64,000 bases of DNA from a virus (lineage: Duplodnaviria > Heunggongvirae > Uroviricota > Caudoviricetes), in IMG/VR virus record IMGVR_UViG_3300031133_000383, positions 373,044 through 437,043 of that record. One strand, given 5' to 3'. Made by a program: the position numbers and the translations under genes. Below the pieces are notes generated by a model. The model worked only from the letters and a program-made list of their open reading frames with translations, was not told the origin of the DNA and did not search any database. Positions 2,097 through 59,767 of the stretch are shown in pieces (within the stretch, counting starts at the first letter, position 1; each line of letters opens with the position of its first letter).

Positions 2097-2180
2097 GCCC
2101 GAGTGGTGGAATGGTAGACGCGGTGGATTCAAAATCCTCTGTCGAAAGACGTGCCGGTTCGAGTCCGGCTTCGGGCACCA
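2097..2180 (+). tRNA. tRNA-Leu(CAA)
   Basis: Cloverleaf, long variable arm, loop TTCAAAA, encoded CCA. Confidence 0.95.
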
Positions 2181-2195
2181 AATTTATATTTTAAC

Positions 2196-2340
2196 TGTTG
2201 AAAAGAGATGCTGTGCTAATACCAGTGTGGCAGTAGAGGTGGTGACCTATTACTTTATTGCATGATGTTAGCAGGGTTATGAAAGTCACTATAATAGTTA
2301 AGGGTTGGTAGTAATGCATTTTCAATCTCTCTATGCATTA
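2196..2340 (+). ncRNA. structured ncRNA family A, copy 1 (unassigned)
   Basis: Tandem paralog at 2369-2520 with compensatory stem changes. Confidence 0.7.
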
Positions 2341-2368
2341 TGACTTTTATTGTTGGTAAGGTTTCAAT

Positions 2369-2520
2369 TGTCGAAAAGAGATGCAGTGGTAACACCCAAG
2401 CGGTGATAGAATTGGTGACCTATTATTTTATCACACGATGTTGCCATTAGTCAGGAAAGTCACTATAACAATTGAGACAGCAGTAGATGTGTTGTGTGCT
2501 TTAAATCTCTTTGTACACTG
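2369..2520 (+). ncRNA. structured ncRNA family A, copy 2 (unassigned)
   Basis: Shares GAAAAGAGATGC, GGTGACCTATTA, GAAAGTCACTATAA and AATCTCT with copy 1. Confidence 0.7.
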
Positions 2521-2568
2521 CATGCTGGACTACTGATTTGTAACGCAGGTTTTTATCCCTGCATTCTA

Positions 2569-2655
2569 TTTTGTTTAGGCTTGTAGCTCAGATGGTAGAG
2601 CGGAGGGCAGAAACCCTCGCGTCGGAGATTCGATTTCTTCCTCGCCTAGACAAAA
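2569..2655 (+). ncRNA. tRNA-Phe-like RNA with 6-nt anticodon loop, extended acceptor stem, no CCA
   Basis: Canonical D and T arms; GAGGG-CAGAAA-CCCTC; paralog at 16119. Confidence 0.7.
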
Positions 2656-2811
2656 TTTTTTATTTTTAATCAATCAAAGATGACAGCTATTTGAACTCTG
2701 GATTGGTGTAATGATTTTTTTCAACAACCTTGAGCTTGATGTTTTCAAAAAAGAAATCATGGTTAAAAATCTTGACTTCTTTAGCATCTGATGCTAATAT
2801 AACCACACAAA

Positions 2812-2895
2812 GCCCGAGTGGTGAAATGGTAGACGCGGGGGACTTAAAATCCCCTTCCTTACGGAGTGCCGGTTCGAGTCCGGCCTCGGGCACCA
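2812..2895 (+). tRNA. tRNA-Leu(TAA)
   Basis: Cloverleaf, loop CTTAAAA, CCA. Confidence 0.95.
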
Positions 2896-2903
2896 AATTT
2901 TAT

Positions 2904-2977
2904 TTCTCGTTAGTTTAACGGTAGAACAGCGGCCTCTAAAACCGTGTATGCGGGTTCGAATCCCGCACGAGGAACCA
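2904..2977 (+). tRNA. amber suppressor tRNA (anticodon CTA)
   Basis: GCGGC-CTCTAAA-ACCGT anticodon arm; intact D, T and acceptor arms; CCA. Confidence 0.85.
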
Positions 2978-2984
2978 GTATCAT

Positions 2985-3061
2985 GGGACTTTAGCTCAGT
3001 TGGTTAGAGCGTCCGACTCATAATCGGCAGGTCGTAGGTTCAAGTCCTACAAGTCCCACCA
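2985..3061 (+). tRNA. tRNA-CAT, probably Ile2 (lysidine type)
   Basis: Loop CTCATAA; paired 1-72; body resembles bacterial tRNA-Ile2. Confidence 0.85.
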
Positions 3062-3138
3062 AATTATCAAAAATTGTCTATATATTGTATATTTCCTTTA
3101 ATCAGGACAATTTGTTGCTACATCCTCTGAGGTGCCAA

Positions 3139-3489
3139 ATGAATTCAATTGATGTGAATAAAATAACCCCATCTTGGTATGTCAAAGATAATATTCTTTT
3201 TTTAGATATTCATTATTGGAAACGTAACGAAACAACAGAAGGCCACTGTGGAAGCACTCTAATTTGGAGGAAGACTATCATAAATGGCAATCTGATCGCC
3301 GCTTATAATTCCATAGTAAAATCAGCTAAAAAATATTTTGATTTACCCTACCTTAAAAAAATCAAGGTGGATAAGTCACCTGCAGTAACGCCTATTGATG
3401 AAAATCATGACTTTGATTTCTATCATCCTCTAGTAGTTTTTTTTATCGGGGTGCTTGTCGGTATGATTTTTATTAAAATGTTGAATTAA
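3139..3489 (+). CDS. hypothetical protein with C-terminal TM anchor
   Basis: GAGGTG RBS before ATG 3139; hydrophobic tail. Confidence 0.7.
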   Translation: MNSIDVNKITPSWYVKDNILFLDIHYWKRNETTEGHCGSTLIWRKTIINGNLIAAYNSIVKSAKKYFDLPYLKKIKVDKSPAVTPIDENHDFDFYHPLVVFFIGVLVGMIFIKMLN

Positions 3490-3523
3490 CTTTTTAATTT
3501 CGATACAGTATGGATATCTATTA

Positions 3524-4726
3524 ATGACAAACCGCCTTGAACTACTGTTAGCGAATACGCCTATTGAATCTGTTTTTGATCATTCAGATTTTAGTGTTGT
3601 TACAGAAGCTGCTAATGTAGGCGAAGTCAGTTTCAATCATTTTGATTTTTTAACTGATAAATCGTATACCGCTACTACCTTTTTCACTGGTCTTGTTCAA
3701 TCTCTTTCTTTTATCTTTCCAAATTTTACGATTTCCGAAATTAAAAGTTTAAGTTCTACGGCTTACTTTTACTTTGACATTTTCCCATTTCCTCAGATTA
3801 TGAATGATATGCATGCTTCTAATTTCAAAGTGCATGTACTTAATCGAAAAGATACAGTTCGTGTAAATTTCAACCTCTTTACTCTTTCGTTTCGTTTTAA
3901 AAAATGGATTTTTAGTTTTAGTGATACGTTCAAAAAAGAACAGGAAATGGAATCCATTTCTTTTGTTAATATTCATACTGCTATGCTGAGATCTTTTAAA
4001 GAATTGATTTCAGATGTCATGATTAAGCCACCTCTATTATTTAATAATGCAATCTTCAAGAAAATTATTGAAAATAAATCTAACTTTTCCTTTAACTCCA
4101 TGCGTTATGAAGATGTTTTTACACACGAAACTGATGTCAATTTTTCTAGGCATATTAAAAAAATTCAACCGTTGATGATTGTAGGCGATCTTCGCTCTAT
4201 CAAGGGTGTTGCTCAACCAGCTATGTTGTATGTAAAAGGTGATATTCGCGTAACTCGTAATGTTTTGAATGTTGCTAAATCAAGTGAAACACAAGTATAT
4301 TTTCGTTATGAATCCCTTGATTTTATAGACTCGCTATTTTCAGTGACTTTTTCTTCTGAGCAACTATCTTCTTTACGAAAGATACTTAATTTGATTAACA
4401 AGATTAATATTTGTTTTGAAAAAGAAGCGTATTCAGGTATTGAAGTCATTCGTATTAACAATTCCAAAAAAGCTATTTATAATTTGATTAAAGAAAAAAA
4501 TGCATTTCATATTACATTTGGTAGAACTAGTATTCATATCAATCGTTATATTGAATGCTCTATAATTATTAATAATTCATACCAATCTATCAAAGTTGAA
4601 AGTTTTGAAGAAGCTTTTAATTGTATTTATCAGGCATTCGCTGTACACGTTGCTAATTATTTTAATATTGATCAAAGCCTAGTGAATGATGACTATATCA
4701 ACTTATTGGAAATGGTTCGTCATTGA
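3524..4726 (+). CDS. hypothetical protein, C-terminal M-x-x-x signature group
   Basis: 400 aa; ends LLEMVRH. Confidence 0.8.
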   Translation: MTNRLELLLANTPIESVFDHSDFSVVTEAANVGEVSFNHFDFLTDKSYTATTFFTGLVQSLSFIFPNFTISEIKSLSSTAYFYFDIFPFPQIMNDMHASNFKVHVLNRKDTVRVNFNLFTLSFRFKKWIFSFSDTFKKEQEMESISFVNIHTAMLRSFKELISDVMIKPPLLFNNAIFKKIIENKSNFSFNSMRYEDVFTHETDVNFSRHIKKIQPLMIVGDLRSIKGVAQPAMLYVKGDIRVTRNVLNVAKSSETQVYFRYESLDFIDSLFSVTFSSEQLSSLRKILNLINKINICFEKEAYSGIEVIRINNSKKAIYNLIKEKNAFHITFGRTSIHINRYIECSIIINNSYQSIKVESFEEAFNCIYQAFAVHVANYFNIDQSLVNDDYINLLEMVRH

Positions 4727-4784
4727 CTTTTTTTTATAATTTTATATACTTCTTTTATTTTTATAATATTATTTCGGAGAATAT

Positions 4785-5492
4785 ATGATTAAAATTATGG
4801 AGTATATTGGCCCAGTCTTTACTGTAAATAATCCTCGATATAAACTAGTGCCTATTGAAGAAACAATACAATCTGCCTGTGTCAATGATGACTGTATCAA
4901 TTATCATCAGCCTCTTTTTGATGGTGTCTTTTGTCCTTTTTGTGGGATGAAAGGAGAGTCTTTTTCTTATACAGTTGATCGTTATTTAACACAAGAACTT
5001 GTTCCCGAAGATGAACAATGTAATCTCTATCTCAAAGCAATAGAACTAGAATCCAGAACGCTTCGTTTTATTCCAAAATTCAAGTCTTATCAATATAGCC
5101 CAAGTTTTTCGTTAATTCATTTTGTTTCAAAAAAATGTTCAAATTATACTTGCCAAGACAACAACCACGAATATCATGATGATTATGATTTTTGTTATCA
5201 GTGTGGATCTAAACTTTCAAATAATATTGATTCTCAACAAAATACTATATTTATTGATGATATTTTAAAAGAACAGAAAAATCAAATATCCTTAATTTTA
5301 TGTGATTCAATAGAACATTATGTTCTGCATAATTTGGATGAATTGATTTCAACACCGTTATTTGATCAGTTTATTATTGATTTCATGAACAGAAAAGAAT
5401 ACAAATCAATTATTAAAGAACTTGAATATATTTATGGTACAGGTACAGTTGTTGTTGAAAATAGACATATAACTTATCGACCAGATATTTAA
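4785..5492 (+). CDS. protein with two zinc-ribbon repeats
   Basis: CxxxxC..FCPFCG and CxxxxC..FCYQCG. Confidence 0.7.
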   Translation: MIKIMEYIGPVFTVNNPRYKLVPIEETIQSACVNDDCINYHQPLFDGVFCPFCGMKGESFSYTVDRYLTQELVPEDEQCNLYLKAIELESRTLRFIPKFKSYQYSPSFSLIHFVSKKCSNYTCQDNNHEYHDDYDFCYQCGSKLSNNIDSQQNTIFIDDILKEQKNQISLILCDSIEHYVLHNLDELISTPLFDQFIIDFMNRKEYKSIIKELEYIYGTGTVVVENRHITYRPDI

Positions 5493-5664
5493 GAATTCTC
5501 TGTTATTTATGAATACATATTGAATTTTTAAGAGGATGGGAAAAATATCTTGACCTTTAGTAAAAATCTTGATATTATTATAGGTATTAAAGCCTACAGC
5601 AGGTTTCCTATGGAGTATGCTAAGTGTTTAATGCATACAACTAACTGTTACTGCTGTTTATTTT

Positions 5665-5738
5665 GCGGAATTGGTCTAGTGGTTGGGCCGTAGCCTTCCA
5701 AGCTACAGAGACGAGTTCGATCCTCGTATTCCGCTCCA
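5665..5738 (+). tRNA. tRNA-Gly(TCC)
   Basis: Loop CTTCCAA, U73, CCA. Confidence 0.92.
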
Positions 5739-5895
5739 AATTTCAACAATGTGGTGGTAAAACAGCCCTATCTAAAAAAAATAAATATCCGATGAATAAT
5801 TAAAGCCTCTAAAAGAGGCTTTTTTATTGTCTTTAGTCTTCTTCTATTATATATTATATGTTAATATTATCATCTATTTTCATAGGCATTTAAAA

Positions 5896-6915
5896 ATGGC
5901 AACAACATTCTTTCACTTTTTATTTTACTTTTTATTTCCAGAATATGTAAAATTCAACAAGATTAAATACAAAGTACGTCGAAAATTTACATTTACAAAG
6001 GTTATTTATTATGCAAAATTTGATAATTATTTTTTGAAAATTTCATATTCATATGTAGATGTTATTAAATCTATTTTTTTCAAAAAAGATTTTGAAAATT
6101 TAAATTTTTGTCTTTGGTATAAAGATATTTGCATTACACGAGTTAATTTGAAACATACTTATACAAGTATCTTTGTTAATAATTATGATATTATTTTTTA
6201 CTCTATACAATATTTAAATGATTTTATTAGTTGTTTAGAGCAAAATGTAACATCTGATAACTTATTGGAAATTTGTAATCAATTAATCGATATTCCTTCA
6301 CCTGAGTTTATTATGTTTACATTTTACTATCAAAACTCTTATTCAATACGGTTTCCAAGTTATTCTAATGTCCCATTTTTCGGTTCAGTTTCAGACACTG
6401 AATCTTTTCATGATTTATGTGTTCTTATTTATGATAAATTTATTTATTTTAATAACTTTGAATCATTAAATAATAAAGATACCGTAGTAAAAGCTATGAA
6501 AGTATATCAAACATTGCAGACAATTTATTCTAAATACTCCATATCTGTCAATCGTTTTTCTAGACCTGAGAGTGGTCTTGTATTTCTAACATGTATCAGT
6601 TATGGTTCAACAGATGTATCTACAAATGATTTTTTAATTTTAGATTTAGATAACAAAACAGGTATTCTGTTTATCAATTTTTGGAGCGATAGCTACCTCT
6701 TTAATGTTGGTTTTACTTCCTCATCTTTACCTGAATTAGTTCGTCTTGTTATGCAGTATCATGCTGGCGTTTATTTGATGATAAATAAATCACCTATTAT
6801 TGAGAATAGTGAAAAGCCTTATTTTTATAGTAATTTTAATAGTGAGTTCGATTATAAATTTGATAAGATGGATGACTCAATGTTAGATATAATTCAAATG
6901 ATGCATTTAAAATGA
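5896..6915 (+). CDS. hypothetical protein, C-terminal signature group
   Basis: Long F/Y/N-rich ORF; ends IIQMMHLK. Confidence 0.75.
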   Translation: MATTFFHFLFYFLFPEYVKFNKIKYKVRRKFTFTKVIYYAKFDNYFLKISYSYVDVIKSIFFKKDFENLNFCLWYKDICITRVNLKHTYTSIFVNNYDIIFYSIQYLNDFISCLEQNVTSDNLLEICNQLIDIPSPEFIMFTFYYQNSYSIRFPSYSNVPFFGSVSDTESFHDLCVLIYDKFIYFNNFESLNNKDTVVKAMKVYQTLQTIYSKYSISVNRFSRPESGLVFLTCISYGSTDVSTNDFLILDLDNKTGILFINFWSDSYLFNVGFTSSSLPELVRLVMQYHAGVYLMINKSPIIENSEKPYFYSNFNSEFDYKFDKMDDSMLDIIQMMHLK

Positions 6916-6986
6916 AATTTTCAAATTTTTAACAAGTCTTTCTTAATATGTTGACTTTAGTTAATATCTACTGTATTATTGCGTCT

Positions 6987-7082
6987 TATTGGATTGAGAT
7001 GACGCTGAAATCGCCTCACAGAAAGGGCAGATCATCTTGTGGTATAGCGGCGATTGAATGGGTTCGAGGCCCATGTCCGATA
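6987..7082 (+). ncRNA. tRNA-like RNA (acceptor stem + T arm, no D stem or anticodon arm)
   Basis: TATTGGAT/GTCCGATA stem, ATGGG-TTCGAGG-CCCAT T arm, AATCGCC/GGCGATT helix; promoter at 6951. Confidence 0.55.
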
Positions 7083-7219
7083 CTGAATTGAATGATTTAG
7101 ACATTTGGTTTAAATCGTAATTATATAGAAGCATAAACAAAAAAAATAAGCACCACATACTTTTTATTAGGAAAATGGTGCTGTATTTTAAACTATAATT
7201 TTTTAATCTTGGAAAATAT

Positions 7220-7867
7220 ATGATTATAGAAAATGATGTCGTAAATTATATAGATTCTTACTTTAAAAAAAAGTTTAAAAATGTCAAATTGTATAATCCT
7301 ACCGTCACTTTATTTTCATCGTTACAAAATCAGGACGCACCTCATCGGTCTTATTCAGCTAAAATGACTATCGATGATAAACCTATAAATTTCTTAGTCT
7401 ATTATACTTTAAAAGATAATGAAGAAGGTGTTTTGTATCTAAACTCTATTAAAGTTAGTTTTATTAAGCAAGATATTAATCTTGTACTAAGTTTTATTCG
7501 CTCTATGGGACAATTAAAAAACTCTTCTGTTTTGGAAGATGTTAATACTTATCTCCTTAATATCTATAATTCAAATCTTCCACAAAAAATCAATATCAAC
7601 TTTCTTCAAAATTTTCATTTAAATAATATTCTTGTTCATAATGAAATCCGCATATACGACCTAAAAGATAACTTATCAGAAAATGAACATTCTGATTTTT
7701 TGATTGCTACTCATATTGGTCGTAAAAGTTCCATTTTAACTGATTTATCTTTGCCAGCTTTACCAAAATACGGTTCTGCAAATGTAGATGAAATCAGAAG
7801 CTTCCTTGATGCCTACCAGATTATAAAAAACGAAATTTTTGAATTGTTTAAGATCAACAGTTATTAG
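7220..7867 (+). CDS. hypothetical protein, C-terminal signature group
   Basis: 215 aa; ends LFKINSY. Confidence 0.75.
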   Translation: MIIENDVVNYIDSYFKKKFKNVKLYNPTVTLFSSLQNQDAPHRSYSAKMTIDDKPINFLVYYTLKDNEEGVLYLNSIKVSFIKQDINLVLSFIRSMGQLKNSSVLEDVNTYLLNIYNSNLPQKININFLQNFHLNNILVHNEIRIYDLKDNLSENEHSDFLIATHIGRKSSILTDLSLPALPKYGSANVDEIRSFLDAYQIIKNEIFELFKINSY

Positions 7868-8094
7868 TTTATTCATATGCTATTGAAATTATCCATTTAA
7901 GAACACCGAAAAGATTGTTGTCTTTTTCTATATTTTTTGGTATAATTACTTCCTATTCAAAGAGGAATGACCATTATGAACAAGATTATTTCTGCTATTG
8001 TTTTTGCACTGGCTTTTTCATCTTTCAATGCTAATGCAATGATTGATGTTTCGGACAAAAAATAAACCGTCACCTAATTCAAGAGGCACTACTA

Positions 8095-8568
8095 ATGTCA
8101 AAATCTATTCAGACAGCATCCACTATTGCTGATATGACTTATGAACAGAAAATTGAATATTTCTTATTTGATGATGGTTCTGTTTCCGGTCTGCGTTACA
8201 AAGAGCGTAGTAAATTTTGGAGAAGCATGGGGTTGTGGGAGGGTGGTTATTTTCCTGAACTGCATCAGGTTGCCTTGAAACTCATGATGTATAAGGGTAA
8301 TAAAGACAACCTTGATCAGACTATTAACTCGATCTCTGATATTTTACCTTTTCTGAAAGAATATCAAGGCATCAAACAGTTGGGTGTTTTTGAGCACACT
8401 CTTTCTGAAAATGGTCGATTCATTGTCGAGATTTCGGCATCGTCATATGAATTGGTTCTTTATCGCTATCATCGTCGCAGCGTTATAAAAGCATTTGATG
8501 ACTTGCGTTCTTTGGTTGAATATGTTCAAGAATATCATTACTATGAAAATTCTATGATTGCAGAATGA
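8095..8568 (+). CDS. hypothetical protein
   Basis: GAGG RBS, 157 aa. Confidence 0.8.
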   Translation: MSKSIQTASTIADMTYEQKIEYFLFDDGSVSGLRYKERSKFWRSMGLWEGGYFPELHQVALKLMMYKGNKDNLDQTINSISDILPFLKEYQGIKQLGVFEHTLSENGRFIVEISASSYELVLYRYHRRSVIKAFDDLRSLVEYVQEYHYYENSMIAE

Positions 8569-8588
8569 TTTAACAGTGCAAAAAACTG

Positions 8589-8696
8589 TTGACGTGTAGA
8601 TGTTTTTTTGATACTATAGCTTTATTGAAACAGCGAAACAACCAGCTAAAAAGTTTTGAAAAAGATGTTGCTAAGGTTTGTGTTTTGTGTTAGAAT
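8589..8696 (+). promoter_or_regulatory. tandem sigma70-like promoters upstream of ncRNA family B / tRNA-Cys
   Basis: TTGACG-17-TACTAT and TTGCTA-17-TAGAAT. Confidence 0.7.
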
Positions 8697-8715
8697 GACA
8701 GCATGAAATGAATAC

Positions 8716-8845
8716 GGAGCCTGTCAGCGAACAGGTTGGGTGGTAGCGGTGTCGCGGGCAAGCCATCACAGTGAAAGTTACATTGATGCAGGGGTTGCAT
8801 TGATTAAAACGATTGGGCGAATCGGTTTCTTTCACAACTTAATTT
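8716..8845 (+). ncRNA. structured ncRNA family B, copy 1
   Basis: Three paralogs with covarying stems. Confidence 0.75.
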
Positions 8846-8889
8846 GATAATAGGTAGTAGTTGTTGTACTGTCTAGTTTGAAGAGATAT

Positions 8890-9019
8890 GGAGCCTGTCT
8901 ACAAGCAGGTTGGGTGGTAGCGGTGTCGCGGGCGAACCATCGACGTGAAAGATTCATTGATGCGGGGAAGGCATTGATTAAAACGGTTAGGTGGACCGGC
9001 TTCTTTCACAACCTAATTT
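8890..9019 (+). ncRNA. structured ncRNA family B, copy 2
   Basis: Tandem paralog directly before tRNA-Cys. Confidence 0.75.
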
Positions 9020-9021
9020 AT

Positions 9022-9095
9022 GGCTGCTTGGCAGAATGGTCATGCACCGGATTGCAAATCCGAGTATGGGGGTTCGATTCCCTCAGCAGCCTCCA
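9022..9095 (+). tRNA. tRNA-Cys(GCA)
   Basis: Loop TTGCAAA, U73, CCA. Confidence 0.93.
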
Positions 9096-9100
9096 ACACA

Positions 9101-9127
9101 AAAGACTTCTTCGGAAGTCTTTTTTTT
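9101..9127 (+). terminator. intrinsic terminator
   Basis: AAAGACTTC-TTCG-GAAGTCTTT + T run. Confidence 0.85.
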
Positions 9128-9250
9128 ATTTCAATATATACACAGTATGAATACATATAATTTAATAAATGTTCATTTGTAATTGTATATTGTCATTCTC
9201 ATGATTCTTTGCTATAATAGCCTTAGCTTATCAATGGTTTGAGGGATTCC

Positions 9251-9769
9251 ATGGACTTTACAAATATCGACAAAATTGATCATCAGTTCATTCAGGCCCA
9301 TGAACTTAAATCTGCCGATCTTCTAAAATACCTTTTTGGAGAGCTTACAGAAATTTCTCTCTATTATCCTGATTTTTATGCATGGCTGACCAACACAGTT
9401 ATGCCCGGTTTGATTTCAGGAGAACGTAGCATTATTCTTGAGCATCGTCATGGCGAATTGGCAGGGGTTGCGATCTTGAAGGATAGTGTTGATGAGCAAA
9501 AGTTATGTTGTCTGCGAGTCATTCCTAAATTTCAGGGTATAGGCATTGGCTTGAAACTGTTTGAGAGATCTTTTAATGAGCTTGACACTGATAAACCTCT
9601 TTTATCTATTGCAGAGGAAAACACTCATAAATTTAAAAAGATTTTAGCTTATTATGGATTTCAACTGGAAGAAGAGTATTCTGATCTTTATCGCCTGAAT
9701 AAGACTGAATTTAGTTTCAATGGCGTCTTGCTTGTTCCTAAAGAAAAAAAATGGAATATTGATCAATGA
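9251..9769 (+). CDS. GNAT family N-acetyltransferase
   Basis: LRVIPKFQGIGIGLKLF acetyl-CoA motif A; YYGF motif B. Confidence 0.85.
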   Translation: MDFTNIDKIDHQFIQAHELKSADLLKYLFGELTEISLYYPDFYAWLTNTVMPGLISGERSIILEHRHGELAGVAILKDSVDEQKLCCLRVIPKFQGIGIGLKLFERSFNELDTDKPLLSIAEENTHKFKKILAYYGFQLEEEYSDLYRLNKTEFSFNGVLLVPKEKKWNIDQ

Positions 9770-31622: not shown

Positions 31623-32006
31623 ATGTTCGCATCATTTAAAGACCTTTTTACCAAAAATAAACGTATATTGGCACTTGTTTTTCAAGATGGTACAGTACAT
31701 GTATTCACTAAACAAACTTTTGATTGGTCATCGCCAGTCGCATCGTTCGTGGATCATGATCTTTCTCTACTGGGTGTCGATGACAAAATGTCTGTTCAAT
31801 CCATGGAAGTTGATATTTATGATGATGTGATTCATTATCCTCATCAAACACTGTATTCTATTCCTTATGATGCACAAAGGAAGCCAGAACGCACATCAAT
31901 TTTGCCTGAATCCGTCTGGCTAGTTGTTTGGAACTATCTAGAAGGTGCCAAAGGGGAAATGACTCCACTGTCTCCCAACACTTTTAAGATGAAAGCTTCG
32001 GCTTGA
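31623..32006 (+). CDS. hypothetical protein
   Basis: GGAG RBS. Confidence 0.75.
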   Translation: MFASFKDLFTKNKRILALVFQDGTVHVFTKQTFDWSSPVASFVDHDLSLLGVDDKMSVQSMEVDIYDDVIHYPHQTLYSIPYDAQRKPERTSILPESVWLVVWNYLEGAKGEMTPLSPNTFKMKASA

Positions 32007-32105
32007 TAGCTTTCATTGATATTGTGTTCTGTTGGTTAAGCTAAAAAAAATGATTACCTTCTTTCTATTTTTTGATATAATTCCCTTCTAACGTAGGAGA
32101 ATGCA

Positions 32106-32618
32106 ATGCCTAACAAATATATCTGCAATCAACGTCGTTTCTTGGTTTTTTCTAAAAGCCTTGTTCATCGTGAAATGGCTGTAAAGGTGCTGGGTCGCGA
32201 TAAGTTGATTCATGGAGCAGGCTTTGTAAAACTAAGCGTCTTGGATGGTATCATTGCAGCAGATTGCTTTGGTAAAAGCGAATCATTGAATAAAGGCGTT
32301 CATCGTCATGACAATTCAAATATTCTTAAATCCATTGGTGTTATTGAAAATGATTCCAGTGTTGAAGCAAAGTATGTTATCTGGCGTCATAAAGTGGTTG
32401 TATTCTCTCCCGAGATTGCTTTTGAAAATGTTATAAAAGGCTCATTTATGGGAGCGACCGATATTGATAGTGCAGGCACTGTTAGCCTAACATTGCGTGA
32501 TGGCAAGATTGATGTAGTCTGTAAGCCAGCAGTAGAAACAGGTGTCGAAGTTGATCGCCTTGATGTTAGATCCATTTTTGATTTATTTCGAATTCCATCA
32601 GAACAACAATTCTCTTGA
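32106..32618 (+). CDS. hypothetical protein with two internal repeat domains
   Basis: KYI..LVFS..GAGFV repeated as KYV..VVFS..SAGTV. Confidence 0.75.
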   Translation: MPNKYICNQRRFLVFSKSLVHREMAVKVLGRDKLIHGAGFVKLSVLDGIIAADCFGKSESLNKGVHRHDNSNILKSIGVIENDSSVEAKYVIWRHKVVVFSPEIAFENVIKGSFMGATDIDSAGTVSLTLRDGKIDVVCKPAVETGVEVDRLDVRSIFDLFRIPSEQQFS

Positions 32619-32645
32619 TTATATAACCAGAAGGAATTTACTATT

Positions 32646-32981
32646 ATGCTTGATTTAGATTTGTCTTTTGAACAACAACGCAATCGTTTTGAACGCCATC
32701 ATAAATTGCAGTCGCCTGCATTTTCTGACTATACTCGAACCGAAACAGGCTATGCTGATCAGAACCTTGATTGTATTTTTAAAGGTTGGCAAATGGCTAT
32801 GAAAGCTCAACCTTCTGATGAAGTTACGTTATATTTTAGTGTGACTTATGGTTGGCTTTTTGAATATATTGAAACAGGTAGTGGTGTTGAATCTCCTGAT
32901 TTTGAAGGTTGTGATGGTGAGGAACAAGCTATTAATTGGGCGAAAGAGCAAGGATTGATCATCGTCAAAATAGAAAATTAA
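32646..32981 (+). CDS. hypothetical protein
   Basis: AAGGA RBS. Confidence 0.75.
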   Translation: MLDLDLSFEQQRNRFERHHKLQSPAFSDYTRTETGYADQNLDCIFKGWQMAMKAQPSDEVTLYFSVTYGWLFEYIETGSGVESPDFEGCDGEEQAINWAKEQGLIIVKIEN

Positions 32982-33124
32982 CAACTTGATAAAAAACCAG
33001 CATCTGTTGGTTTTTTTCTATCCTGTATTTAGTAAAATAACCGTATACAATTTTTAATATTTAAAACACACATATAGTTCTTTTCAGATTTTTTTTAAAA
33101 AATACGAAAATCATGAAAAAATGC

Positions 33125-33153
33125 TTGCCAAGGAAGATAGTTTTAGGTATTAT
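33125..33153 (+). promoter_or_regulatory. sigma70-like promoter of minigene array
   Basis: TTGCCA-17-TATTAT; very similar promoter at 42686. Confidence 0.75.
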
Positions 33154-33209
33154 AGACACATAAAGCGGCAAGCAAGAAACCTAATGAAAACAATGATTTA
33201 AAGTAGATA

Positions 33210-33537
33210 AAGTGCCAGAGGTGAGCTACCAATGCAGTAATCGTCTAAAATTAGAGAACTTATTTATTATTGAATTTAGAAAAAACTTTAACTCAAAAAA
33301 CCTATTAAAAATTAAGTCTAGAGGTGGCTAAAAATGTAAAACTAATCCAATATTAGATGACTACTATTAGATAAGATTATGAATTTATTAACCTTTAAAT
33401 TAAAATCAATACAAGTGCTCGGAGGTGAGCCAGACATGCAGTAATTAACTAAAATATATAACTTTAGACTAATTAAACATAGATGAAAGATGAGATAGAA
33501 AATCAAAACGGTGCGGTCTTACCAAATGACAATTTAA
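33210..33537 (+). other. array of Shine-Dalgarno + start-stop minigenes (MQ*, M*, MQ*, MTI*)
   Basis: GAGGTG(A) 7-8 nt before ATG at 33232, 33334, 33436 (102-nt period); weaker unit at 33526. Confidence 0.7.
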
Positions 33538-33571
33538 CGTCTCCCACCTAATGATTGTCAAGTGTCAAAAG

Positions 33572-33598
33572 AAAGACCTAGCGATAGGTCTTTTTTTT
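33572..33598 (+). terminator. intrinsic terminator closing minigene array
   Basis: AAAGACCTA-GCGA-TAGGTCTTTTTTTT. Confidence 0.88.
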
Positions 33599-33727
33599 AT
33601 TTAAATTTCTACATTGAAATTTTCTTTCAGAATCAGAAAATGATTGTTATCCTATTGAATTTTTGGTATTATAATCATCTTGAAGCAGCCTTTACGTAAA
33701 TCATCAACCACCAAAAGGAGACTTATT

Positions 33728-33742
33728 ATGCTAAGGTTTTAA
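33728..33742 (+). promoter_or_regulatory. 4-codon leader ORF (MLRF)
   Basis: AAGGAG RBS; equivalent uORF at 42769. Confidence 0.6.
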
Positions 33743-33762
33743 ACTTAACAAGGTAAATTCAT

Positions 33763-34092
33763 ATGAGCAAAACAGTTAGACGCAAATCAGTAAACATCAG
33801 CTTCAAAAAAGGCTACCTCTTCGATATCAGCGATGTAGCTGTTAATGGACTGGTAGATTGCCGTTGGTGTCCTTCATTCAATGGCCTGTCACTCAAAGAG
33901 GCTAATGCTAAAAAAATCAATTGGTTCCATTCCTGCAAAGGCCCAAGCGAACGCTACTGCCCCGGAAAAGGATACCGCCAAAAGTACAGGGCTAAGAGCA
34001 AACATCAACTCATCCGACAGTTGAAAGTGCTCGAAGACTACGAAGCCGTTCAAATCGACAAGGTTTGCTCGGATCATGAGTTCTGGTCATAA
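33763..34092 (+). CDS. basic phage protein, paralog of 42804
   Basis: Shared WFHSC.GPS..YCPGK.YRQ.YRAKSK. Confidence 0.88.
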   Translation: MSKTVRRKSVNISFKKGYLFDISDVAVNGLVDCRWCPSFNGLSLKEANAKKINWFHSCKGPSERYCPGKGYRQKYRAKSKHQLIRQLKVLEDYEAVQIDKVCSDHEFWS

Positions 34093-34162
34093 TTGGTAAA
34101 TTAAGCTTGTTATGGATTAGTATATGGTCTATAATGAGCTTTCCTATTTTTAGAGGTGACTT

Positions 34163-34639
34163 ATGAAAGAAGAACAATTGTCCCAAAGTCCAGTTCCAAC
34201 AGTTGGAACTAGCGTTATCTTTACAGGTCTCAATGGGTCTTTTGCTGATCGTCGCGTTATTAATGAACGTGAAGCTACTGCTGATGGCTCTCGTTTGACA
34301 GTGCGTAATGTTATTCCAACCATTAACAATGGTGTTGATCGTATTGATCTTGAATTTGAAGAAATTGAAGGTCAGCACAATTCAAACCTGTTTGTGGAGG
34401 CTGTTTATTGGTTTAAACATGTATTTCAGACTGAGCAAACGGTAGTTTTTACAGGTAAGGGGCCTTTTGCCTCTCAGATTGAGTCAGTAAAGGCACAGGG
34501 TGTAAAGCGTGGTGATGAATTAACCATTAAACGGGTTCGATCCAATAATGATTCTGTTTACCTTGAGTTCTATGAACTGGTTGACCTTCATAATGGCTTG
34601 ATGTTTTGTGATAAAAGTTTTTGGGCTAGACCTTGTTAA
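34163..34639 (+). CDS. hypothetical protein with two tandem repeats
   Basis: VIFTG..LEFEE..HNSNLF repeated as VVFTG..LEFYE..HNGLMF. Confidence 0.8.
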   Translation: MKEEQLSQSPVPTVGTSVIFTGLNGSFADRRVINEREATADGSRLTVRNVIPTINNGVDRIDLEFEEIEGQHNSNLFVEAVYWFKHVFQTEQTVVFTGKGPFASQIESVKAQGVKRGDELTIKRVRSNNDSVYLEFYELVDLHNGLMFCDKSFWARPC

Positions 34640-35194
34640 AATACTTGAAATGATTTCTTTTTATGCTATAATTACTCATACATAAATTGAAGGCATCATG
34701 ACAATGATTGTGTTGCCTAATGAGTGGAATCCATAGGAATATCAGTTTTAGCAGACCGTTTCTGTCCTATGGTTAAAAAATGGAATGTTGTTGTTCAAGT
34801 TTGCCTTTTTTCTTGTCCAACAGTTTACTATCTGGCACAATAATATTAGCCTTAAAAATCTGCAGTGATAGCATTGTATTTCAGGAGGCTATCATGTTTT
34901 TTTCAGTTATCTACTTGAATCAACAAGATTAGATGCTATACTGACTGGAAAGTTTAATGCTGGTTGTTCCACCAATCAGTACCGAACGTCAGGTCTATAT
35001 TAAATGGCAGAGTATCGCCGCCTGATCTCTTTTTTATGATGAAAGGCATCTTGGACTTCGGTTCTGGATTAAAACGGTTGGGTGAACTGGCCTTTTATCT
35101 CATTCTTCTAACCATAAGTGTCACTACTTATGGTTTTTTTATTGCTTATTTTTTTGTTTTTTGATACACTCTCATTATCTAATTTGAGGATACC

Positions 35195-48187: not shown

Positions 48188-49777
48188 GTAAACTACCCCG
48201 CCCTGAAGGACGGAGCTTTTTTAGTTTTGTTGAAGCCTGATTCTATCAGTAAACTGATTAAAGTCTGCTTCTTTGGGTAGTTTACGATACCCTTACTGGC
48301 TTCTTTAAAATACAGATCTCTCCATTCTTTAAATTTACCACTACTTTCTAAATACTTTCTTAGTATATTTCCTGCTCCATTTATATCCGAATTTATCAAT
48401 ATCCCTTCCTTGCTTTTGAACATCCCTCTTTTGGTTCTTCTACCAAGATAGTTCTCTTGGTGTTTCATTGGTTCTAGGTCAATGAAACTTGTTTTTGATG
48501 TGTAAGATTCTTCGCATCTTACTACTTCAATACCTTTTGCTTTTGCCTTATATTCAAGTACGTCCTTGAATTTGGCATGAGGAATAAATACAAAGTTTTG
48601 ATTATTAATTTTACCGATATTAATGTCTTGTTTCTGTTCTTTATTTTCACCTACAATTATCTTGTTTATATTGTGTTTCACACAATATTCTACAATAAAC
48701 TTTGTAGAACGGTGGAAATAATCATTAATTTTATTATTTCTTTTATGAGTTAACTTATTTTTCTTTTTAATTAATTCATTCGTTTCTAATTTTTCATTCT
48801 TGCGTAGTTCTATTTTGCTTTGCAACTTAGATGCTTTTTTATTGAAAAATTGATTTATAGATTTAATATATTTACCATCAATAATAAAAGAACTTCCGTT
48901 TTTAGAATTAAAACATCCTGCCAAATTATTTAAACCCGGATCTATTGATAGATATTGACCATTATCATCTTTTCTTGTCTCGATAGTTGTTTTGTAAACA
49001 ACTTCGAGTTTAAATTGAATAGGAGCTTTTCCATGTGGAATAATTCGTATTTCATTAATGGTTTGAATATGTTTTGGTACTTTAAATTCAAAACAATGAC
49101 TTGTATTAGGATAAAGTTTTTTAAATGCTTTAGAAGCATTGAATTTGAAAATATTAACATTATCCAAGTTAGATGACTTTACTTTATCAAATAAAATACT
49201 ACGTCCTTGAATAACAATGTTTGACAATACCGTTTCATTGTTTTTCTTTTTATATCGAGCTATTTTCACTTCTTTATTATAAGTCCCTTTCTTCTTGGCT
49301 TTCAACAAGCCAAGAAAGGAATTAAAATCACGATGAGCTAATTGAACGACTTGCTGCGAGCAGTCGTTTAAAAGAATAGAGAAATTTTCATTGGTTTTAC
49401 ATAAATGGTAATTATCCTTAAAAGCCAATATTTTACCATCAAAATAATTTTGTCGAATTTGATAAAGAGCAAAATTGTACATAAGAGAAGAATGAGTAGC
49501 GTGTTTAACAAGAAAATCATGATCAAGAGGGGCAAGAGAATTAAGCCACATTTGGCAAACTCTAGTTTCAATCAATGGATTTTTCTTTTTAGTGTTACGT
49601 TTCAAAACTTTCCCCTAAGACAACTAATAAATCAGTTGACAAAATAATAGAAGACATTATAGGATACTAAAAATAAAAGTCAACAAAGAATCAGTTGTCA
49701 ATTAAAAGAAGGCAGTTGAGACTATTCCTCCCCGCCCTGAAGGACGAGGCTTCCAAGTCTCTAATTGATTTCAAAGG
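48188..49777 (-). mobile_element. IS200/IS605-family (IS1341-type, tnpB-only) element
   Basis: Both ends carry GTCCTTCAGGGCGGGG hairpins; left end preceded by TCAC as in the 63615 copy. Confidence 0.85.
48193..49605 (-). CDS. tnpB: RNA-guided endonuclease TnpB
   Basis: SIDPGLNN (RuvC I), IIVGE, EESYTSK, NSDINGAGNI. Confidence 0.92.
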   Translation of the reverse strand: MKRNTKKKNPLIETRVCQMWLNSLAPLDHDFLVKHATHSSLMYNFALYQIRQNYFDGKILAFKDNYHLCKTNENFSILLNDCSQQVVQLAHRDFNSFLGLLKAKKKGTYNKEVKIARYKKKNNETVLSNIVIQGRSILFDKVKSSNLDNVNIFKFNASKAFKKLYPNTSHCFEFKVPKHIQTINEIRIIPHGKAPIQFKLEVVYKTTIETRKDDNGQYLSIDPGLNNLAGCFNSKNGSSFIIDGKYIKSINQFFNKKASKLQSKIELRKNEKLETNELIKKKNKLTHKRNNKINDYFHRSTKFIVEYCVKHNINKIIVGENKEQKQDINIGKINNQNFVFIPHAKFKDVLEYKAKAKGIEVVRCEESYTSKTSFIDLEPMKHQENYLGRRTKRGMFKSKEGILINSDINGAGNILRKYLESSGKFKEWRDLYFKEASKGIVNYPKKQTLISLLIESGFNKTKKAPSFRAG

Positions 49778-58581: not shown

Positions 58582-59767
58582 CAAATCTTAGTAAAAAGAA
58601 TGCCCCTCGATTCATCTATGGGGATGAATTTTTATGATTCAAATTATTGACTTTATTGATAATTTATTGTAAAATTCTGAGATGAATAATCTAACGACCA
58701 TTAAAACTCTAAAAATTAGAGTTAAAGACAAACATAAAGGCGTTCTTTGCCAAATGGCGAAGAACGTTAATCTCGTTTGGAACTTCGTTAATGAAATCAG
58801 TACTCGCTCAATTGTTGAGCGTAACAAATTCCTTTCCGCTAGAGATCTTCAAAAATACACCGATGGTTCTTCAAAACTACTCAAATTGCATAGTCAAACT
58901 ATTCAAGGAATTTGTGATGAATATGCTACTCGTAGAATTCAATTCAAGAAAAGAAAATTAAAATGGCGAAAATCGGTAGGATCTAGACGATCTCTTGGTT
59001 GGGTTCCTTTTAAGGCTAGTGCTGTTTCTTATAAAAATGGTCAAATTCATTTTAATAAACATCATTTTTCTATTTGGGACAGTTACGGACTGTCCAAATA
59101 TAAATTTAAAAGTGGTTCTTTTAATGAAGATGCTCGTGGTCGATGGTACTTCAACGTAGCAGTTGAAGTTCCAAGAACATTCTCTTCAAGCCAAGGTAGT
59201 GTAGGGATTGATCTTGGGTTTAAAGAATCTGCTGTCTGCAGTGACGGTTTTAAAACAGAAAGAAATAGGATTTATCGTTCTTATGAAAAGAAATTAGCTA
59301 TTGCTCAACGTTCTAACAACAAAGTTAGAACGAGAGCTATTCACGCTAAAATTGCTAATATTCGAAAAGATACACTTCATAAATTCACACATCATTTAGT
59401 CAAAAACTACAGTGAAATTTATGTAGGTGATTTGAGCATTAAGAAAATGCTCAAAGCCAAAAGAGGAAAGTCTACGTTAGATGCCGCTCATGGCATGATA
59501 AGAAGTATGCTGGTTTATAAATGCGATAACGCAGGCATACATCACAATGTGAATGTAGACGAAAAAAACACTACCCGCACCTGTCATTCGTGTAAGTCTC
59601 TAACAGGACCGAAAGGATTAGATGGGCTGCGAATAAGAGTATGGACTTGTTGTGTGTGTGGTGACACACACAATCGGGATGAAAATTCCGCTAAGAATAT
59701 ACTTGAGGTCGGACATGGCCTTCTAGCAGTAGGAATCCCCTTGCTTTAGCTATGGGGTGGATGTCAA
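58582..59767 (+). mobile_element. IS605-family tnpB-only element
   Basis: Inserted 3' of TTAC, right end TCAA (IS608-like); CCCC..ATGGGG hairpins at both ends. Confidence 0.88.
58682..59749 (+). CDS. tnpB: RNA-guided endonuclease TnpB
   Basis: GIDLG, VGD, zinc ribbon CHSC/CCVC, RDENSAKNI. Confidence 0.95.
   Translation: MNNLTTIKTLKIRVKDKHKGVLCQMAKNVNLVWNFVNEISTRSIVERNKFLSARDLQKYTDGSSKLLKLHSQTIQGICDEYATRRIQFKKRKLKWRKSVGSRRSLGWVPFKASAVSYKNGQIHFNKHHFSIWDSYGLSKYKFKSGSFNEDARGRWYFNVAVEVPRTFSSSQGSVGIDLGFKESAVCSDGFKTERNRIYRSYEKKLAIAQRSNNKVRTRAIHAKIANIRKDTLHKFTHHLVKNYSEIYVGDLSIKKMLKAKRGKSTLDAAHGMIRSMLVYKCDNAGIHHNVNVDEKNTTRTCHSCKSLTGPKGLDGLRIRVWTCCVCGDTHNRDENSAKNILEVGHGLLAVGIPLL

Follow-up and report, generated by a model that had tools for sequence, protein, structure and literature searches.

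The bar sites of phage lambda are single sites embedded in other transcripts and carry a specific rare codon, AUA for isoleucine; minigenes of this type are lethal in hosts deficient in Pth, in which peptidyl-tRNA accumulates. To our knowledge, the natural role of phage minigenes has remained unsettled ever since bar was discovered. In the STAB-SD elements and similar 5′ stabilisers of Bacillus and its phages, a strong Shine-Dalgarno (SD) sequence in untranslated RNA recruits a ribosomal subunit without any protein being made; stabilisers of this type are not known to need a start or a stop codon or to act on anything but downstream RNA. Work with engineered minigenes of 2-8 codons has found the shortest ones to be the most inhibitory and to accumulate the most peptidyl-tRNA (PMC2490762). 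Translation of CreT RNAs, the toxic component of CRISPR-associated CreTA modules, sequesters rare tRNAs (PMC8501985), and Start-Stop sites in E. coli genes bind ribosomes (Meydan et al., 10.1101/520783). Here we describe a locus at positions 33125-33598 of a 64-kb window (the whole stretch of DNA analysed), which is the final 64 kb of a 437-kb IMG/VR virus record (31% G+C, CheckV completeness 98%). The locus is best explained, from comparative sequence analysis, as the gene for a non-coding RNA of about 440 nucleotides (nt) of a huge phage, in which a strong SD, a start codon and an almost immediate stop codon are repeated three times. Below, G000 denotes the 437-kb record, W the window locus and L002 to L158 related loci.

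The locus resembles each of these systems in part. With lambda bar and the engineered minigenes it shares the phage-borne combination of SD, AUG, one or two sense codons and a stop (units 1 and 3 both read Met-Gln-stop); action through translation rather than through a protein product, with the shortest open reading frames (ORFs) being the most potent, is a property of the minigenes (PMC2490762). Unlike bar, the units described here form conserved tandem arrays on dedicated or tRNA-linked transcripts, their last codon is variable and some are pure start-stops. Like CreT, the locus would yield a small RNA with a tiny ORF behind a strong ribosome-binding site, the translation-dependent activity being that of CreT (PMC8501985). 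However, the single ORF of CreT contains two rare codons in succession that are read by the same tRNA; CreT is paired with creA, a gene derived from a CRISPR repeat, is under repression by CreA/Cascade and lies beside cas genes. The present locus differs in having several units, in lacking tandem rare codons and in its surroundings: no CRISPR-like repeat flanks it, and the only Cas12f/TnpB-like ORFs are 15-25 kb away. The E. coli Start-Stop sites, in which AUG is directly followed by a stop behind an SD-like sequence, have counterparts in unit 2 and in the first units of the L002 and L100 arrays. The E. coli sites are single, out of frame, inside protein-coding genes and mild in their cis effect; those studied here lie in non-coding RNAs, form arrays and are mixed with versions of 2-3 codons. 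In contrast to STAB-SD elements, AUG and stop are invariant and many units are 3′-terminal. A dedicated RNA with multiple repeats of an SD-like motif also recalls the CsrB/RsmZ sponges, which titrate a translation-related ligand. Those RNAs present GGA in hairpin loops for CsrA/RsmA, whereas the modules have no hairpins, contain GGA only in GGAGG variants and have AUG and a stop after each motif; a weak, sub-threshold rsmX match (Rfam) lies outside the array. Nor does the locus look like a CRISPR array, since its repeat copies are at most 79% alike and the "spacers" of about 70 nt are partly conserved between phages, or like a structured non-coding RNA (riboswitch, ribozyme, OLE/GOLLD-like), since the modules lack consensus pairs (z = -0.2) and a single compensatory pair is confined to the tail. 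The literature yielded no description of tandem SD/start/stop arrays as dedicated RNAs. The family is unannotated and without an Rfam match, and it is a variant of translated minigene RNAs, itself a known class.

Architecture of the predicted transcript

The original prediction, made from the letters of the window alone, had placed a promoter and a terminator around some 440 nt without a long ORF and had recognised three SD-ATG-stop units in between. Rereading of the coordinates confirmed this picture, and both flanking signals proved to be conserved. The elements of the transcript are as follows.

33125-33153 (+): predicted sigma-70-type promoter from a consensus scan; -35 TTGCCA (33125-33130), 17-nt spacer, -10 TATTAT (33148-33153)
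33160-33209 (+): conserved 5′ leader, AGACACATMAAG ... AAGAAMCCTAAYGAAAACAA, from alignment with L081 and L113
33210-33240 (+): unit 1; AAGTGCC, A, GAGGTGA (33218-33224), 7 nt, ATG (33232), CAG, TAA (33238-33240); Met-Gln-stop
33241-33312 (+): first inter-unit spacer, A-rich and unstructured, with semi-conserved linear motifs in the 36-module alignment
33313-33339 (+): unit 2, variant type; AAGTCT, A, GAGGTGG (33321-33327), 6 nt, ATG (33334), TAA (33337-33339); Met-stop
33340-33412 (+): second inter-unit spacer, TTAGATGAC ... TTATTAACC ..., from the 36-module alignment
33413-33444 (+): unit 3; AAGTGCT, C, GGAGGTGA (33421-33428), 7 nt, ATG (33436), CAG, TAA (33442-33444); Met-Gln-stop
33510-33548 (+): conserved 3′ tail hairpin; outer stem GGTG.GG/CC.CACC, inner stem GAC/GTC, loop AATTTAAC
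33567-33598 (+): predicted intrinsic terminator from a scan; 14-pair stem followed by a T run

The promoter is the top promoter-like site of the region, with 10 of 12 matches to the consensus, and the leader contains neither an ORF nor a predicted structure. All three units are recognised by nhmmer (E-values of 2e-14, 3e-4 and 3e-11 for units 1, 2 and 3) and are predicted to pair with the 16S rRNA tail at -11.7, -10.6 and -15.4 kcal/mol, respectively. The subtype represented by unit 2 (GCTAAAAATGTAAAA) is also the first in the L002 array, and a near variant (GCCAAAAATGTAAAA) is the first in the L100 array. What recurs between the units are only the cores of about 30 nt and some flanking motifs, which in the first spacer include TTAGAGAAC about 18 nt past the ATG and a TTTAAC/TTAACC box ahead of the next unit; Tandem Repeats Finder reported no tandem repeat at the locus. 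The pattern GAGGTG-N5-10-ATG occurs at 13 sites in G000 (both strands, 874 kb), three of them within these 440 nt. Because the Poisson probability of at least three such sites in 440 nt is about 5e-8, chance clustering of the units is excluded. The longest ORF on the sense strand has 39 codons for amino acids (GTG start at 33212); we considered it as a coding gene and rejected it, as it is not kept in the orthologues. Rfam 15 gave only terminator-like noise far under threshold for 32000-35000, and the gathering-level matches in the window were tRNAs exclusively.

Two details of the original prediction need revision. The ATGs in the window are exactly 102 nt apart, as it had stated, but this period is not conserved, the distance between units in relatives being 98-118 nt. 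Judged against these relatives, the exact 102-nt spacing is a local coincidence. A weaker fourth unit (ATG at 33526) and a separate CCACCT stretch had also been proposed; both lie inside the one conserved hairpin at 33510-33548, which is kept in L081, L100, L113 and L120. In the inner stem of this hairpin, G(A/G)C/G(T/C)C, RNAalifold found one compensatory pair (A-U to G-C). Since the ATG at 33526 is replaced by GTG in these four relatives and the ACA/GCA change beside it is explained by hairpin pairing, the fourth unit is probably not a minigene and we did not count it as such. In L113 (11590-11650, +), the tail box (TTAACGCCCTCCACCAACTGATTAAAGCAAC) has undergone a 31-nt tandem duplication relative to L081. 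The tail sequence GGTGCGG(T/C)T ... CCTCC(A)CC presumably resembles the 3′ strand of 16S helix 45 together with the anti-SD core (GGUGCGGCUGGAUCACCUCC), a likeness that could be due to chance.

Features of a unit under selection

Comparison of 37 distinct copies of the unit, collected from G000, related AT-rich huge-phage records and metagenome contigs, revealed a precise pattern of constraint. The most invariant letters are GAGGTG and ATG. The ATG is present in every copy, and the distance from GAGGTG to ATG is 8 nt in all but one of them, where it is 7 nt, while the letters in between vary freely. In 36 of the 37 units the reading frame is closed at +3, +6 or +9, and in the remaining one at +15; an equally early stop occurs in frames +1 and +2 in only six units and one unit, respectively. 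TAA is used in 34 units, TGA in two and TAG in one. The mini-ORF thus delimited spans 1-5 codons, with none to two (once four) sense codons after ATG, and comes in 15 versions: M, MQ, MP, ME, MK, MQH, MQN, MQI, MPY, MKR, MQF, MQS, MQL, MPH and MQHKL. Two-codon ORFs (MQ, MP, ME or MK) account for 11 units and pure start-stops for three, the others having three or five codons. At orthologous positions, ORF length changes in whole codons: in W, L081 and L100, respectively, unit 1 encodes MQ, ME and M, unit 2 encodes M, MP and MQI, and unit 3 encodes MQ, MP and MQN. Hence the relatives retain SD-ATG-stop units amid divergent spacers, and copies keeping GAGGTG while losing the ATG, the early stop or the spacing, which would have spoken against the original prediction, were not seen.

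The choice of codons is also constrained, in a way that does not single out one tRNA. The mini-ORFs close on sense codons for 12 different amino acids (Gln, Pro, Glu, Lys, His, Asn, Ile, Tyr, Arg, Phe, Ser and Leu), and this variation among the 15 versions disfavours the earlier suggestion that the RNA depletes a particular tRNA. The first sense codon is always a minor G-ending one, namely CAG (24 units), CCG (6), AAG (3) or GAG (1), which make up 23, 7, 18 and 16% of their synonymous sets in the phage; its real genes favour AAA, ATT or AAT as the second codon. Predicted pairing of the units to the 16S 3′ tail (for which a generic sequence was used) ranges from -10.6 to -16.2 kcal/mol. By comparison, the median for 384 phage genes, whose SDs are of the AGGAG type, is -5.8 kcal/mol, and only 2-4% of these genes match the strength of a unit. 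RNAalifold found no consensus base pairs among 36 modules of 120 nt, and the fold of the whole transcript is indistinguishable from that of shuffled sequences (z = -0.2); the SD sites therefore appear to be open. Candidate hairpins that might present the SD (GTGCC/GCTAC, GCTC/GAGC and GGTG/TACC, sought by eye) were discarded, as none is kept across units and RNAalifold gave no pairs.

On these comparative grounds, the features under selection are the SD, its spacing, the AUG and the in-frame stop. A frame-specific stop combined with a free preceding codon is what would be expected of translation, and not of a structural or protein-binding motif. The modules are thus probably true sites at which ribosomes start and stop.

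Distribution and genomic context

The units were found in a small clade. When IMG/VR was scanned for the pattern, five more large records (150-290 kb) proved to contain the unit, and a metagenome scan added further AT-rich contigs. A scan of 185,579 prokaryote species genomes (one per species) returned only single chance matches in high-GC bacteria, which indicates that the units belong to the phage clade and not to its host. Among GenBank phages, blastn found no match to the locus; searching viral contigs for the two flanking proteins revealed no syntenic locus, and a loose version of the pattern in viral contigs returned mostly ordinary gene starts. Homologues of G000 proteins flank the related loci, with 94-97% identity in the case of the tRNA synthetase-like protein. 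A sequence-only covariance model detected exactly three units in G000 and 10, 3, 3, 3 and 2 units in the five related records, and every one of them has ATG and an early stop.

Orthology extends over the entire length of the loci W, L081, L113 and L100. Despite a differing promoter spacer, W, L081 and L113 have the same -35 and -10 hexamers, and the leader is conserved in these three loci; the promoter region of L100 is different. There are three units in each of W, L081, L113 and L100 and two in L120. The 3′ tail and terminator are conserved in the orthologues, and the terminator stem has undergone a compensatory change in L100 and L120 (GACCTA/TAGGTC versus GACCTC/GAGGTC). All the while, inter-phage identity of the spacers falls to roughly 70% as the units stay conserved. 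These comparative data uphold the earlier view of a dedicated, protein-less, promoter-to-terminator transcript with repeated SD/start/stop elements.

Units are co-oriented with the adjacent tRNA genes or terminators in all 13 loci that we read, and they occur in three settings. Arrays of 2-5 units lie on their own promoter-terminator transcript, often followed by a folded or folded-looking RNA, such as the tail hairpin in W. Other units reside within tRNA operons, typically 25-45 nt past tRNA-Leu(UAA), tRNA-Arg(UCU) or tRNA-Met, and there often form a two-unit cassette closing at the terminator. Finally, a single unit may be located between a gene and its terminator. Units stand 5′ of a structured RNA or tRNA of the same transcript in eight loci (W, L081, L100, L002, L142, L152, L003 and L148). 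The layout tRNA-unit-unit-terminator is found in L020 (L020a), L121, L128 and L156, and gene-unit-terminator in L020b. Such terminal cassettes have no downstream element, which argues that the units are themselves the cargo.

Several other elements were noticed at the related loci. Stretches of about 200-250 nt that are richer in G+C, free of ORFs and folded-looking extend from array to terminator at L142:4830-5090 (+), L152:870-1130 (-) and L002:6390-6600 (-), those of L142 and L152 being clearly homologous to each other. A shorter folded-looking element of about 85-100 nt (GGGGTATCCGCTAAAGGATAC ... GGAGTGTTGAGA ...) lies between the last unit and the tRNA at L003:2190-2290 (-) and L148:1715-1820 (+), and stops exactly at the tRNA 5′ end. 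Between its two units, L003 also has two similar SD-led 8-codon ORFs (2400-2480, -; MKEEFDDI and MKDEHDDL). At L156:10262-10290 (+), a unit with a mutated SD (GATGTG instead of GAGGTG) has kept ATG CAG CAT TAA intact and may be a decaying copy. Related IMG/VR "provirus" records match parts of megabase contigs by sequence identity: L121, L152 and L158 are on metagenome contig Ga0308158_10000001 (1.86 Mb), and L131, L122, L140 and L157 on contig Ga0247725_1000001 (1.54 Mb). The 1.86-Mb contig has units and phage-like tRNA operons beyond the three model-found units of the 179-kb record G003, apparently outside G003. The size of the element may greatly exceed that of the records; alternatively, this contig may contain several relatives, joined together or integrated.

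Proposed mode of action and alternative explanations

The RNA may be pictured as three A-rich, unstructured modules strung together, each of about 100 nt, and completed by a small 3′ hairpin and the terminator. Each module would offer a very strong SD (GAGGTGA) capable of 7-8 contiguous pairs with the 16S rRNA tail, followed 8 nt after GAGGTG (7 nt in unit 2) by the start codon, then by no codon or one minor G-ending codon, and by TAA. A 30S or 70S ribosome would dock at each module, initiate, and terminate either immediately or once one or two peptide bonds have formed. With no useful peptide made, ribosome engagement itself would be the output of the RNA. The spacing of about 100 nt would permit all modules to be occupied simultaneously, and slow filling of the A site at the minor G-ending second codon would prolong the dwell of the ribosome. 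Acting in trans, the RNA would hold or cycle ribosomes together with the initiator tRNA and the initiation, release and recycling factors of the infected cell. What such loading achieves, be it a sponge, a shield or the trapping of tRNA, is a matter of inference.

We tentatively favour the trans-acting capture of ribosomes or factors as the main role, although with somewhat less than even confidence. This reading is preferred because modules in the relatives are terminal cargo behind tRNAs with nothing downstream to protect, and because they ride on tRNA-operon promoters, which are presumed to be strong. It is favoured further because a strong SD, a slow second codon and an immediate stop would lengthen dwell on a minimal footprint, and because the spacing allows simultaneous occupancy. 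Some observations weigh against it. There are only three units in G000, against tens of thousands of ribosomes, so that copy number may be in question. Conservation also extends to AAGTGCC just 5′ of the SD, to the TTAACC-type box about 30 nt upstream and to TTAKAKAAY about 18 nt past the ATG; as this block exceeds what a ribosome-binding site needs, a second ligand is possible. In addition, GAGG lies about 3-4 nt farther from the ATG than does the SD in the genes of the phage itself. A broader generalisation is more doubtful, namely that huge phages make abundant RNAs, often from tRNA-operon promoters, whose sole product is ribosome occupancy, serving either as multi-site traps or as decoy A-sites for RelE-family toxins. 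Such traps would dock ribosomes on exceptionally strong SDs, stall them at the slow G-ending codon and let them go at the stop that follows at once, thereby retuning the cell's supply of free ribosomes, of initiator tRNA and of the factors for initiation, release and recycling.

Parked ribosomes might instead act in cis, much as STAB-SD and other 5′ stabilisers do, guarding co-transcribed structured RNAs (such as the tail hairpin in W) or tRNAs, or the RNA itself, from 5′-end-dependent decay (the RNase J 5′-exonuclease or scanning by RNase E) or from termination by Rho. The eight loci with units 5′ of a structured RNA or tRNA would fit such a shield, and strong SDs with unstructured spacers would suit ribosome roadblocks. 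However, the units of L020a, L121, L128, L156 and L020b are the final element before the terminator and have nothing downstream to shield; tRNAs and hairpins are already intrinsically stable; the spacers, being A-rich and not C-rich, would be poor loading sites for Rho; and the invariance of AUG and stop sets the units apart from known stabilisers, which presumably need neither. Taken together, this makes a cis-acting shield rather unlikely. A trap similar to bar or CreT would work differently, through peptidyl-tRNA drop-off that leaves the host short of certain tRNAs (the tRNA-Gln that reads CAG, for instance) or places too great a load on Pth, and it would hurt the host more than the AT-rich phage. 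The potency of the shortest minigenes (PMC2490762) and the translation-dependent action of CreT (PMC8501985) lend it some plausibility, as does the second codon, always a minor G-ending one that the phage itself avoids, and neither tRNA-Gln nor tRNA-Glu is among the 26 tRNA genes of G000. Yet the last sense codon, which would specify the tRNA to be trapped, is spread over a dozen amino acids; the three pure start-stops involve no elongator tRNA at all; the tandem rare codons of CreT are missing; and no Pth or release-factor gene by which the phage could spare itself was found in G000. Such a trap is therefore improbable as the main role.

Trans-acting capture of ribosomes must also be weighed against readings in which the ribosome is not the intended partner. 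The unit could be a repeated linear site recognised by a ligand other than the ribosome, for instance by a small RNA or by an RNA-binding protein of phage or host, making the RNA a sponge or scaffold. The site would then include the SD-like core, and the early stop would serve to contain the harm done by accidental initiation. Conservation reaching AAGTGCC, the TTAACC box and TTAKAKAAY points in this direction, and an immediate stop has been proposed elsewhere as mitigation of an unwanted start (10.1101/520783). Even so, invariance is greatest precisely in GAGGTG and ATG, whose distance is fixed, and an ATG that is a mere liability need not persist. No CsrA gene was found in G000, and the modules have neither a conserved GGA nor hairpins. 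We also rejected the idea that the RNA lures a translational repressor away from a real target gene: the AAGTGCC-GAGGTGA leader precedes none of the genes in G000, which leaves no operator to mimic. A non-ribosomal ligand as the main explanation seems to us likewise improbable. That the units are a selfish or neutral intergenic repeat family, spread by duplication and devoid of function, is highly improbable: their multiple intergenic copies, and the recurrence of modular subtypes in different contexts of one genome, would suit such a family, but the units stay conserved across phages whose spacers have drifted to roughly 70% identity, their constraints are both position-specific and frame-specific, the whole orthologous transcript is kept with its own promoter and terminator, and terminal inverted repeats or hairpins are lacking. 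Hardly credible, finally, is a decoy for ribosome-dependent mRNA interferases of the RelE family (toxin-antitoxin or abortive infection systems), which would expose NNG, CAG or a stop in the A site. After initiation the A-site codon is indeed CAG, CCG, AAG, GAG or TAA in all 37 units, and RelE was first reported to be specific for CAG, UCG and UAG, with a preference for cutting before a third-position G and after C (PMC5224514). This coincidence of codon preference is the sole basis of the idea, and RelE turns over and cleaves broadly in vivo (PMC5224514), so that a decoy would offer little protection.

Gene content of the phage

The locus is situated in an AT-rich stretch between an ORF of 111 residues (ending at 32981) and one of 109 residues (starting at 33763); ten neighbouring ORFs had no matches in PHROGs. 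Just 3′ of the array terminator, behind a second promoter-like site (33644-33672), there is a strong ribosome-binding site (AAAGGAG) with a 4-codon upstream ORF (33711-33765: ATG 33728, CTA AGG TTT, TAA 33740-33742), about 20 nt upstream of the ATG of the basic 109-residue ORF. Farther away, the window encodes two TnpB/Cas12f-like ORFs (OrfB_IS605 with a Cas12f1-like TNB domain; 48193-49605, -, and 58682-59749, +).

G000 as a whole has 26 tRNA genes, DnaK, an NAD-dependent ligase, a bS21 homologue, the two TnpB-like ORFs and a class I tRNA synthetase-like gene (Pfam tRNA-synt_1b, Trp/Tyr family). Its DnaK is full-length (G000:C1:182807-184708) and 73% identical to Pseudomonas-type DnaK. Six of the tRNA genes are tRNA-Met(CAT). 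The tRNA region of the window (2097-16194) includes an amber-suppressor-like tRNA(CTA) at 2904-2977 and two odd tRNA-like genes at 2577-2648 and 16119-16194. An alternative genetic code as the source of an artefact was rejected, as ORF statistics were no better with TAG or TGA read as sense. The bS21 homologue is outside the window (G000:C1:61515-61673, 47.6 bits) and had no match in five related records, four of which are incomplete; present in G000 and not found in these, it gives no grounds for an obligate link between bS21 and the minigenes, which we rejected.

Implications

Lambda bar, the Start-Stop sites and CreT have established that translation of a tiny ORF can have effects in which no protein product is involved. 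Here, the logic of the minigene takes the form of an RNA gene that is conserved in a clade of huge phages, occurs in multiple copies and is clearly under selection. Since the same clade carries tRNAs, a tRNA synthetase-like gene, DnaK and, in G000, bS21, it provides a clean system for studying ribosome loading that has no product. Were the RNA merely to shield RNA, it would be a tidy but modest extension of the known stabiliser elements. If, on the other hand, it captures ribosomes or factors, an RNA-based route would be added to the presumed ways in which large phages redirect translation, and the combination of a strong SD with a start-stop would supply compact natural parts for controlling ribosome availability. 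If ribosome occupancy is indeed the sole product of such RNAs, they would represent a new class of viral take-over RNA that targets the ribosome itself.

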